A stretch of DNA of 27,163 bases from a virus (IMGVR_UViG_2531839527_000008), one strand, 5' to 3'. Counted from the stretch's first letter, positions 4,926-5,786 are shown. Program-made: numbers and translations. Notes: generated by a model not told the origin, from the letters alone.

Positions 4926-5786
4926 TTACACGTGTTTTTCCAATGTGAAAACTACAGCCCCGGCAGGAGTAATGTCTGTAATGTTGCATTCAAACTCAGC
5001 AGACTTATTTGACAACCTGACTTTTCCACCGGGCAAGCGAATTACATCAAAAACATCAAGAGCGCCGTCGATATCAATTAACCAGCGACCATTACTTATA
5101 TTCGAAGCAGAACAGTCGACAAGCCAAGAGGCAGCTACACCGTCAACAAAAATCAATTCCCCTGAGTTAGAAGGAATCATTGAGGGGTCAGGATGCCACG
5201 TTCCTGCATCCTTAAGCTCACCAGATTCAAGACGAGATTTTTTAATAGAAAAACCAGATGTGACATCTTCCCTGTTAGCTCGCATTTGCCCCTTGCCTGT
5301 TGCTAACCATTCCAGTGACGTATCGGTATCAAGAGCGCATGTAACAACAACATCACCAGGGAAAAAATCTCGCCTTACCCATGTGCTAATTGTGCCAGAG
5401 GAAATGCCGAGCAAATCACCGAGCTCCTTTTGCATGGTAAAGCCATACGCATCAAGAATCCTACGCAAAACGGTTTTACCACCATTCGTCATAATCTCGT
5501 CATAAAGCTCTTTGCCTTTTAACTTGCAACTGGCTCGCTCGTGATTTGCATTTGCAAGTTCTCCATTTACAAGCCAATTGATATCAGCTCCCGTGTCAAG
5601 ACAACACCTAACTATGACATTGCCAGGTATTGCATCACGCTGAACCCAGCCGCTAACGCTGTGTTTAGCGATACCTAGCAGGTCAGCCAAATCCTTTTGC
5701 ATCTTGACCCCATAGGCTGACATTAAGCGTTCCAATACGCCGTTCGTTGCACTAACACGCCACTGAACATCAAGCTCAGAACTCAT
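4926..5786 (-). CDS. cI: phage 186 CI-type immunity repressor with tandem duplicated N-terminal HTH domain
   Basis: Two consecutive copies of the CI N-terminal domain (LERLMSAYGVKMQKDLADLLGI...WLVNGE and LRRILDAYGFTMQKELGDLLGI...WLATGKG) followed by a 186-CI-like C-terminal domain (GRWLIDIDGA...ECNITDI). Confidence 0.8.
   Translation of the reverse strand: MSSELDVQWRVSATNGVLERLMSAYGVKMQKDLADLLGIAKHSVSGWVQRDAIPGNVIVRCCLDTGADINWLVNGELANANHERASCKLKGKELYDEIMTNGGKTVLRRILDAYGFTMQKELGDLLGISSGTISTWVRRDFFPGDVVVTCALDTDTSLEWLATGKGQMRANREDVTSGFSIKKSRLESGELKDAGTWHPDPSMIPSNSGELIFVDGVAASWLVDCSASNISNGRWLIDIDGALDVFDVIRLPGGKVRLSNKSAEFECNITDITPAGAVVFTLEKHV

Follow-up and report, generated by a model that had tools for sequence, protein, structure and literature searches.

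The question raised by this locus is why the immunity repressor of a temperate phage should carry two DNA-binding heads where its relative, the CI repressor of phage 186, carries one. The locus lies in a viral DNA stretch of 27,163 nucleotides (nt) (IMGVR_UViG_2531839527_000008; the whole of this stretch is referred to as the window), in which open reading frame (ORF) finding placed a minus-strand frame at 4926..5786 that begins with ATG and encodes a protein of 286 amino acids (aa). The original prediction, made from the DNA sequence, held that this repressor arose by tandem duplication of its helix-turn-helix (HTH) domain, and that a chain with two HTH domains would change the geometry of its operator and the stoichiometry of its oligomers. 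By homology, the gene is identified as the immunity (maintenance) repressor gene, cI, of a PSP3-type, 186-like P2-family prophage of E. coli. The answer that we favour, with a little better than even confidence, is that the two heads have different jobs, each serving one class of operator, on a 186-like oligomerising scaffold. The parts of the gene are as follows.

4926..5786, minus strand: cI, the immunity repressor gene, in the order HTH, HTH, C-terminal domain (two PF07022 stretches plus PF16452; match to PSP3 cI)
5556..5747, minus strand (aa 14-77): D1, the hypervariable N-terminal HTH domain, proposed reader of the pR operators (from entropy, non-synonymous divergence and operator correlation)
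5475..5555, minus strand (aa 78-104): linker 1, disordered at 79-87, with a conserved helix at 92-101 (LKGKxLYDEI) before D2
5292..5474, minus strand (aa 105-165): D2, the nearly invariant HTH domain with the helix ISSGTISTWVRRD, proposed reader of TTGCAAATGCAA (from entropy and non-synonymous divergence)
4929..5231, minus strand (aa 186-286): C-terminal domain, homologous to the oligomerisation domain of 186 CI (PF16452; structural model compared with 2fkd_A)

The predicted arrangement of two 186-CI-type HTH domains ahead of a single C-terminal domain was upheld by three lines of analysis. Pfam recognised PF07022 (Phage_CI_repr; cut-off 22 bits) in two stretches, with an E-value of 1.3e-52 for the whole protein and the best stretch at aa 106-169, and PF16452 (Phage_CI_C) in one match at aa 180-277 (E 1e-20), while no NCBIfam model exceeded its own cut-off. 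Local self-alignment (BLOSUM62) of aa 14-83 with aa 100-173 scored 183, compared to 27.3 ± 4.8 (maximum 43) for 500 shuffles, indicating that the second copy is homologous to the first. Furthermore, the crystallised 186 CI chain (2fjr, 189 residues) aligned exclusively with aa 105-280, from which it follows that D2 and the C-terminal domain constitute the canonical 186-type protein and that D1 is an added head; the 186 protein does possess one N-terminal domain and, at 192 aa by its gene product, the predicted size of approximately 190 aa. D2 retains every HTH-core residue that is invariant in the family, among them the W-x-x-R of the recognition helix.

An AlphaFold2 (AF2) model based on 73 homologues displayed three folded domains, two disordered linkers at residues 79-87 and 169-177 (with a predicted local distance difference test score below 50 at 79-87) and an extra helix at 92-101. 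Its C-terminal domain matched that of 186 (2fkd_A) with a template modelling (TM) score of 0.89 and a root-mean-square deviation of 1.6 Å. The predicted TM score (pTM) of the single chain was 0.50, the domains being confident and the inter-domain arrangement, including D1-D2 packing, unreliable; the model therefore cannot choose between the modes of binding considered below. The fold search returned no solved structure with tandem heads of the CI repressor family. An internal start that would generate an isoform consisting of D2 and the C-terminal domain was considered and rejected, as 78% of homologues have Leu at position 99 and the intragenic TTGCAA is not followed by promoter-like spacing.

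The unusual length of the gene is the one feature that would speak for an accident, whether through two genes fused by sequencing or assembly or through a recent duplication that left the second head redundant. Against this, seven sequenced phages, 49-68 complete E. coli genomes and ~74 genomes of other Enterobacterales share the reading frame. With cI (orf29, annotated as 'immunity repressor') of Salmonella phage PSP3 the protein has 97.9% identity, with CI of Escherichia phage vB_EcoM-613R3 it has 99.7%, and the double-headed frame is intact in the independent records of PSP3, SEN1, vB_EcoM-613R3, Midge, SW9 and RCIP0057. A length of 270-295 aa was observed for 118 of the 120 best database homologues, the hosts of which include Klebsiella, Enterobacter, Salmonella, Citrobacter, Pantoea, Cronobacter and Brenneria, and the family of 278-290 aa extends across the Enterobacterales. 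A genome scan added ~74 further double-headed loci in Kosakonia, Serratia, Pectobacterium, Dickeya, Rahnella, Lonsdalea and others. DNA encoding D2 and the C-terminal domain is present in 49 complete E. coli genomes, under the Prokaryotic Genome Annotation Pipeline label 'phage repressor protein CI', and the stretch from cI to pR is 100% identical in many complete E. coli chromosomes. Since the frame recurs across phages, chromosomes and homologues, a sequencing or fusion artefact is excluded and cI is one gene, as predicted, rather than two joined by error. The two copies share 30% of their third codon positions and are both under purifying selection, at very different rates, which equally speaks against a young, redundant head; altogether, we consider the chance of an accident to be negligible.

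The age of the duplication was assessed across 70 aligned codons, in which D1 and D2 are 52.9% identical in aa, 53.8% in nt and 30% at third positions. As the last value represents saturation, the copies are old, and the comparison of repeat identity suggested for dating the event thereby yields antiquity rather than a date. In a tree of heads, the D1s of PSP3-type proteins form their own clade, while the D2 clade also holds the single heads of CI proteins of 183-196 aa; with D2 thus grouping with the 196-aa proteins of Rahnella and Ewingella, fusion of the heads of two repressors appears, on the tree, as likely an origin of D1 as duplication in situ. Of the tandem duplication originally proposed, the two homologous copies therefore stand, while a recent event in situ does not follow from saturated synonymous sites. 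Single-headed proteins number 106 among ~150 representatives of the CI family, against 27 with two heads and one with three, and the phylogeny implies that extra heads arose repeatedly.

The two heads have evolved very differently. Mean column entropy across 118 homologues is 0.23 for D2, 0.92 for D1 and 0.81 for the C-terminal domain, with the D1 values peaking where the recognition helix begins. When phages of different D1 type are compared, the proportion of non-synonymous differences (pN) in D2 is 0.05-0.12 while that of synonymous differences (pS) is 0.69-0.91; for D1, pN between D1 types amounts to 0.23-0.36. The low pN of D2 despite saturated pS indicates that this head is ancient and very strongly constrained, and not a recently shared recombinant block.

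The variation of D1 was compared with that at the early rightward promoter pR, for which the following features are relevant.

5816..5844, plus strand: candidate pR, with the -35 hexamer TTTACA (5816-5821), the 17-nt spacer GAAAACTTTTTACGATC and the -10 hexamer TATAGT (5839-5844); 10/12 matches in the promoter scan
5795..5846, unstranded: immunity-specific operator region with candidate D1 sites, poorly defined for the D1 type of the window
6020..6028, plus strand: third match to TACAGANAA, reading TACAGACAA, within orf30 and 224 bp to the right of the first match; a possible distal D1 site, judging by its sequence

The pR frame of the window is that of the annotated 186 pR (TTTACT-17-TATATT), and TTTACA, a 17-nt spacer and TA(A/T)AGT are kept in ~60 loci. 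In relatives, the spacer is usually an inverted repeat, as in 186, the arms of which differ with the D1 helix as the D2 helix remains constant. Examples of such spacer operators are ATCGCAttTGCGAT, TCGCAtttTGCGA, ATCGTttttACGAT, ATACAtttgTGTAT, ACACGttaCGTGT, ATCCATATGGAT and AGCACAtttGTGAT, and a fourth E. coli D1 type has two AAAATTAATTTT palindromes, 21 bp apart, at pR. A symmetric 186-like inverted repeat, with neighbouring sites at a distance of two helical turns, fills the 17-bp spacer in at least 10 D1 types, and in at least 10 both arms co-vary (e.g. ATACA/TGTAT, ACACG/CGTGT and ATCCA/TGGAT) with the D2 helix unchanged. Half-sites were more similar within a phage than between D1 types (permutation p 0.019 and 0.008), the modest significance reflecting a test in fixed register while the register shifts between D1 types. 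Similarly, divergence of the operator region correlated with that of D1 (rho 0.57; partial 0.54 given D2 or the C-terminal domain) and less so with that of D2 (rho 0.40) or the C-terminal domain (rho 0.30).

In the window itself, the operator region contains a 22-bp direct repeat, TACAGATAATTTT (5796) and TACAGAAAACTTT (5818), and TAYAGAT in inverted orientation over the -10 of pR. The motif TACAGANAA has three same-strand matches in the window (5796, 5818 and 6020) versus 0.45 expected. A search within ±2.5 kb, allowing up to two mismatches, found no second copy of each phage's own pR spacer palindrome, and distal sites are consequently not of the pR type. A GATC (Dam) site stands directly 5' of the -10 (CGATCTA(A/T)AGT; window 5835-5838) in most double-headed phages (L002-L077), whatever their D1 type, and may act as part of the promoter, as an element sensitive to methylation or as an operator arm held in common.

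Comparison of the window with Midge, SW9 and the phage at locus L008 delimits the variable unit. To the right of the pR -10, nucleotide identity is 88-100%; it falls to 22-33% where cI begins, stands at 45-68% through D1 and 72-87% across D2, and reaches 83-92% in the C-terminal domain for Midge and L008. The collapse of identity is confined to the region from the pR -10 to the end of D1, which implies that D1 moves together with the pR operators in a cassette of ~300 bp.

The pR operators were also considered in the light of a different reading, in which the chain acts as a pseudo-dimer, with D1 on a variable and D2 on a conserved half-site of a composite pR operator, and with a geometry and a number of sites per oligomer that differ from those of 186. 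Consistent with this, the spacer is asymmetric in several D1 types, including that of the window, combining a variable left arm with a shared right arm ((G/A)CGATC) by the -10, the bottom strand of which (GATCG(C/T)AAAA) resembles the TCGCAAA half of the D2-type site described below; additionally, the invariance across D1 types of TumA, the presumed antirepressor encoded further to the right, is easier to explain if D2 acts at pR. However, both spacer arms co-vary in at least 10 D1 types with the same D2 helix, which points to two like heads per operator, while the D2-type sequence stands as a complete palindrome away from pR. Moreover, the shared arm overlaps GATC and the -10 flank and may be a promoter feature, and D1-D2 packing was not confident in the AF2 model (pTM 0.50, disordered linkers). 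We therefore regard the pseudo-dimer as unlikely. Nor do the comparative data suggest the originally predicted change of geometry at one operator, as at least 10 D1 types keep the symmetric 186-like repeat in the 17-bp spacer and an invariant palindrome of the same geometry lies elsewhere; two operator classes, one for each head, fit these observations better than a composite operator.

The invariant palindrome lies within cI.

5544..5559 (core 5546-5557), unstranded: intragenic palindrome, ATTTGCATTTGCAAGT on the top strand and ACTTGCAAATGCAAAT on the cI sense strand; candidate D2 operator

The palindrome, with the consensus (AC)TTGCAAATGCAA(AT) and 12-16 bp in length, occupies codons 76-81, ~278 bp to the left of the pR spacer and at a position comparable to that of 186 FL. 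It is the single occurrence of a perfect TTGCA-N2-TGCAA in the 27-kb window, and 58 of ~74 double-headed loci carry it with 0-1 mismatch. Its codons display the strongest synonymous constraint (lowest synonymous-codon entropy) in cI: Ala78 is GCA in 54 of 56 cases, Asn79 is AAT in 49 of 50 and Ala80 is GCA in 40 of 47, while other alanine codons are evenly mixed. A second TTGCAA (AACTTGCAACTGG) at 5521-5529, 28 bp from the palindrome, was observed in the D1 type of the window and PSP3 only, and it forms a 12-nt inverted repeat with the palindrome (5521-5532 paired with 5549-5560).

The same sequence recurs at the promoter of the late-activator gene pag/ogr, where the 13-mer CTTGCAAATGCAA is located ~59 bp upstream of the gene, overlapping the -35. 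This copy was identified in PSP3, Midge, RCIP0057, SW9, one IMG/VR contig (L276) and E. coli KE40 and SA53-3, which together represent four D1 types, and the cI region of KE40 is identical to that of the window. The window does not extend to the pag end of the prophage; of 80 IMG/VR loci around cI, one reaches pag, most being prophage fragments cut at attL. The PSP3 genome (30.6 kb) contains exactly two perfect copies of the palindrome, that within cI and that at the pag promoter, where 0.033 would be expected, and nothing similar was found at the ogr promoter of P2. In some Kosakonia and Dickeya relatives, an additional copy is situated between the apl-like gene and cII, an FR-type position for which no copy was found in the window. 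A scan of IMG/VR with the 15-mer AACTTGCAAATGCAA gave mostly unrelated chance matches among the matches listed and was not used.

The palindrome also follows the D2 helix. Among loci with the canonical helix, 32 of 33 keep the intragenic site with 0-1 mismatch, while variant helices tend to be accompanied by variant or lost sites, as exemplified by Pectobacterium (helix ISTATISTW, intragenic site TCGCATTTGCAA). Furthermore, six loci in the range L079-L085 encode a single-headed CI of 196 aa with the recognition helix of D2, SSGTISTW(V/I)RR. The pR spacer of three of these (L083-L085) is ACTCGCAAATGCAAGTT, and the window intragenic site ACTTGCAAATGCAAAT matches the spacer operator of L083 at 14 of 16 positions. 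Those of L079-L081 are of the type CTTGCAAA(A/G)TCAAG, related but more divergent, and similar (T/C)GCAAAA motifs occur ~20 bp apart towards cI in the single-headed loci.

It may alternatively be proposed that D2 is a non-DNA-binding interaction or spacer module, for instance a docking surface for TumA, with D1 reading all operators and TTGCAAATGCAA being conserved as the -35 of pag or as the site of another factor. The TumA module is encoded in the window as follows.

10148-10163, plus strand: LexA box
10185-10364, plus strand: tumA (98-99% identity of tumA and tumB to PSP3 TumA and TumB by tblastn)
10371-10601, plus strand: tumB

The LexA box CTGTATAAATATACAG (CTGT-N8-ACAG) lies directly upstream of tumA (60 aa) and tumB (DinI-like), the module is annotated in PSP3 as 'UV induction of prophage', and tumA and tumB represent the tum gene of 186 split in two. 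TumA was found in ten records of the phage collection, all of which carry a double-headed cI, and is 98-100% identical across three D1 types. In favour of a docking role stand this restriction to double-headed records and a constraint that is stronger on D2 than on the C-terminal domain, as would be expected of a surface fitted to a partner; the pag copy, in addition, coincides with the -35 hexamer. Yet D2 keeps all family-invariant HTH-core residues, W-x-x-R included, and it shares an identical recognition helix with single-headed CI proteins, for which DNA binding is indispensable. The intragenic copy has no recognisable promoter and still shows the strongest synonymous constraint in cI, and the palindrome follows D2 across phages of three apl-region types. 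A D2 without DNA-binding function thus seems improbable, marginally more so than the pseudo-dimer, although binding and docking roles are not mutually exclusive.

The reading that we prefer is one head per operator class. In the GenBank annotation of 186, CI sites of the form ATTCAC-N5-GTGAAT are found at pB (the late-activator promoter, over the -35), FL (inside cI) and FR (between apl and cII), and the site in the pR spacer, ATCTCTCAATTGGGAGA, is of a different kind. A division of labour is suggested because the sites of the pR class vary with D1 while the site of the pB/FL/(FR) class is as constant as D2, with the same geography as in 186. The architecture, the evolutionary asymmetry of the heads and the distribution of the sites are matters of observation, from which we infer the assignment of D1 to pR and of D2 to the palindrome. 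D1, the outer and fast-evolving head, would bind the immunity-specific operators over pR, which comprise the operator in the 17-bp spacer and neighbouring sites some two helical turns from it, and would form with them the cassette of ~300 bp (approximately window 5545-5845) that is swapped between otherwise similar phages. D2, the inner and nearly invariant head, would bind the (AC)TTGCAAATGCAA(AT) palindromes at the pag/ogr -35, inside cI and, in some relatives, between the apl-like gene and cII, thus at the positions of 186 pB, FL and FR. Dimers and higher oligomers may be expected from the homology of the C-terminal domain, such that D1 pairs bound at pR and D2 pairs bound at distal sites could share one particle, and induction would be expected to proceed, by analogy, through the LexA-controlled TumA antirepressor.

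Several observations weigh against this division of labour. The window spacer GAAAACTTTTTACGATC is not palindromic, the region around it showing a direct repeat and no clean palindrome. As D1 adjoins the operators, their correlation may in part represent linkage rather than recognition, and the right arm beside the -10 (xCGATC), which many D1 types share, could represent a half-site for D2 or an element of the promoter. In the pag-promoter palindrome, which takes in the -35 hexamer, part of the conservation is that of the promoter, and this copy could be checked in four D1 types only. TumA is invariant across three D1 types, and if it were to act via D2, a simple split between the heads would leave the release of pR unexplained. 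Finally, the 4LV2017 family, which provides an independent test, keeps both heads conserved and mutually similar, with no pattern of a variable D1 and a constant D2; the PSP3-type division of labour may not apply to that family.

A wider reading, which we put forward as possible rather than probable, is that the specificities of 186 CI have been split onto two heads, with a swappable immunity cassette of ~300 bp, a family-wide grip on late genes, a second layer of immunity and selection for the repeated gain of heads. D2 would give all members of the family the same hold on the late-activator promoter and the distal site, and a lysogen would also shut off the late-gene activator of superinfecting heteroimmune relatives, this being the second, family-wide immunity layer. 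The repeated, independent gains of heads in the CI family would reflect selection for uncoupling two specificities. If the division of labour is right, new immunities would arise by the exchange of a very small cassette, and late-gene cross-repression between heteroimmune relatives would be predicted, with a bearing on how prophages compete in E. coli, Klebsiella, Salmonella and plant-associated Enterobacterales, in which the double-headed repressor is common. In addition, the contributions of the distal and late-promoter sites would become separable, as these could be disabled via D2 with pR binding untouched.

With regard to novelty, the one published account that was found describes the PsP3 protein as a CI with 'a longer C-terminal domain' (PMC3448106), a description that the two-headed architecture corrects. 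Searches by Pfam name, for tandem HTH repressors and in a 2024 Eganvirus paper found no literature on a two-headed CI architecture. Both the sequence and the Pfam architecture can be found in public databases, to which the bare observation is therefore nothing new; the functional split between the heads, suggested here by sequence comparison, is a new proposal.

The surroundings of cI are those of a PSP3-like prophage and comprise the features below.

3516..4556, minus strand: int, the last gene of the lysogenic operon (Pfam integrase domains)
4579..4917, minus strand: DUF2511 (YebY-like) gene with a signal peptide, between int and cI
5845..5907, unstranded: pR-pL leader, identical in PSP3, Midge and SW9, with CATC-N6-GATG and TGCAC-N5-TGCAC
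5908..6279, plus strand: orf30, which opens the rightward early operon, in the apl/cox position (PSP3 orf30; annotated as Cox in phage Midge)
6312..6821, plus strand: cII (PF06892), its first 28 nt (6312-6339), ATGTTTGATTTTCAGGTTTCCAAACATC, being identical to the annotated 186 CII-binding site at pE

The DNA of the window as a whole is 87-92% identical to that of PSP3 over the greater part of its length, cI has the same neighbours as in PSP3, and the leftward cI-int operon, pR, the apl-position gene and cII follow the order annotated for 186. To the left of int (window 1-3500), the DNA is AT-rich and unrelated to PSP3, with an ORF of 281 aa (2554-3399, plus strand) of unknown function, and the left end of the prophage (attL) must lie between ~3400 and 3515. 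The opposite end of the prophage (pag/ogr) adjoins rplS-trmD-rimM-rpsP in E. coli KE40 and SA53-3. The DUF2511 gene occupies the same position in PSP3, Midge, SW9 and E. coli A38 and is probably cargo of the lysogenic operon that is expressed in the lysogen; DUF2511/YebY has been linked to a copper-related operon (PMC8689200). By analogy, the pL promoter and sites for the Apl-like protein are expected in 5845..5907. orf30 gave no Pfam or NCBIfam match, its PsP3 copy is a 'singleton' in the literature, and it contains a 35-bp inverted repeat (5957-5991) with 14-nt arms that are 93% complementary and 7 nt apart. The identity of 6312-6339 to the 186 CII site indicates that the true start of cII is the ATG at 6312 and not the TTG at 6282 given by the ORF finder.

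Compared with known repressors, the window CI differs in family and size from the C-type repressor of P2, which has ~100 aa, binds two direct repeats and lacks a CI C-terminal domain. Lambda CI, with its long-range cooperation between OL and OR, is similar by analogy only, in that an HTH head is joined to an oligomerising C-terminal domain and distal sites stabilise repression (the fold search returned a weak C-terminal domain similarity); it differs in its HTH family, its one head and its RecA-stimulated self-cleavage, where antirepression of the Tum type is expected for PSP3-type proteins. Two PF07022-type heads before one CI C-terminal domain are likewise found in the 4LV2017-type CI (a Klebsiella/Enterobacter phage; 313 aa) and a Shewanella algae homologue (P0184), but these are independent lineages, in which each head resembles single-headed proteins or the other head more closely than it does the PSP3 heads. 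The two heads of the Shewanella algae protein are 70% identical, the pR spacer of the 4LV2017 type (L004 2420-3361; loci L210-L246) resembles the 186 FR site, and the independent multi-headed lineages, which include P0184 and P0237, extend to a protein of 323 aa with three heads and no CI C-terminal domain.

Closer to D2 are the 196-aa CI proteins of Rahnella, Ewingella and Chimaeribacter (P0133 cluster, L079-L085), whose head is 79-85% identical to some D2s (for example that of P0133 to the D2 of P0125 or P0122), whose recognition helix is that of D2 and whose pR operators are related to the conserved palindrome. Unlike the PSP3-type protein they lack D1, and their TTGCAAA-type site is the pR immunity operator, in three copies ~20 bp apart, rather than a distal or late-promoter site.

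The closest parallel overall is 186 CI (2FJR, 2FKD), a model for cooperative, wrapped and looped repression, with which the PSP3-type protein shares the HTH family, the C-terminal fold, the gene position, the layout of the switch and, in at least 10 related D1 types, an inverted-repeat operator in the 17-bp pR spacer. The phages also agree in the sequence of the CII site and in having a LexA box ahead of the tum module, and the palindromes at the late-activator promoter and inside cI, which are candidate sites here, match the positions of 186 pB and FL. They differ in that FL lies in the codons of the linker between the N- and C-terminal domains of 186 CI while the intragenic site here lies at the end of the D1 codons, and in that the genes at the apl position are unrelated. 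A wheel of 14 subunits, a heptamer of dimers that wraps DNA, is known for 186 CI (PMC3675496), while the PSP3-type protein is known here from its sequence and a single-chain model. The oddity of 186 CI is that its single HTH reads two unrelated inverted repeats, those of pR and those of pB, FL and FR, according to the 186 GenBank annotation and a secondary statement in PMC1904268. In 186, one HTH in 192 aa thus serves both site classes; the PSP3-type protein, with 286 aa, two HTH domains and a D1 that has no counterpart in 186, looks like the natural alternative, in which there would be one head for each class of site.

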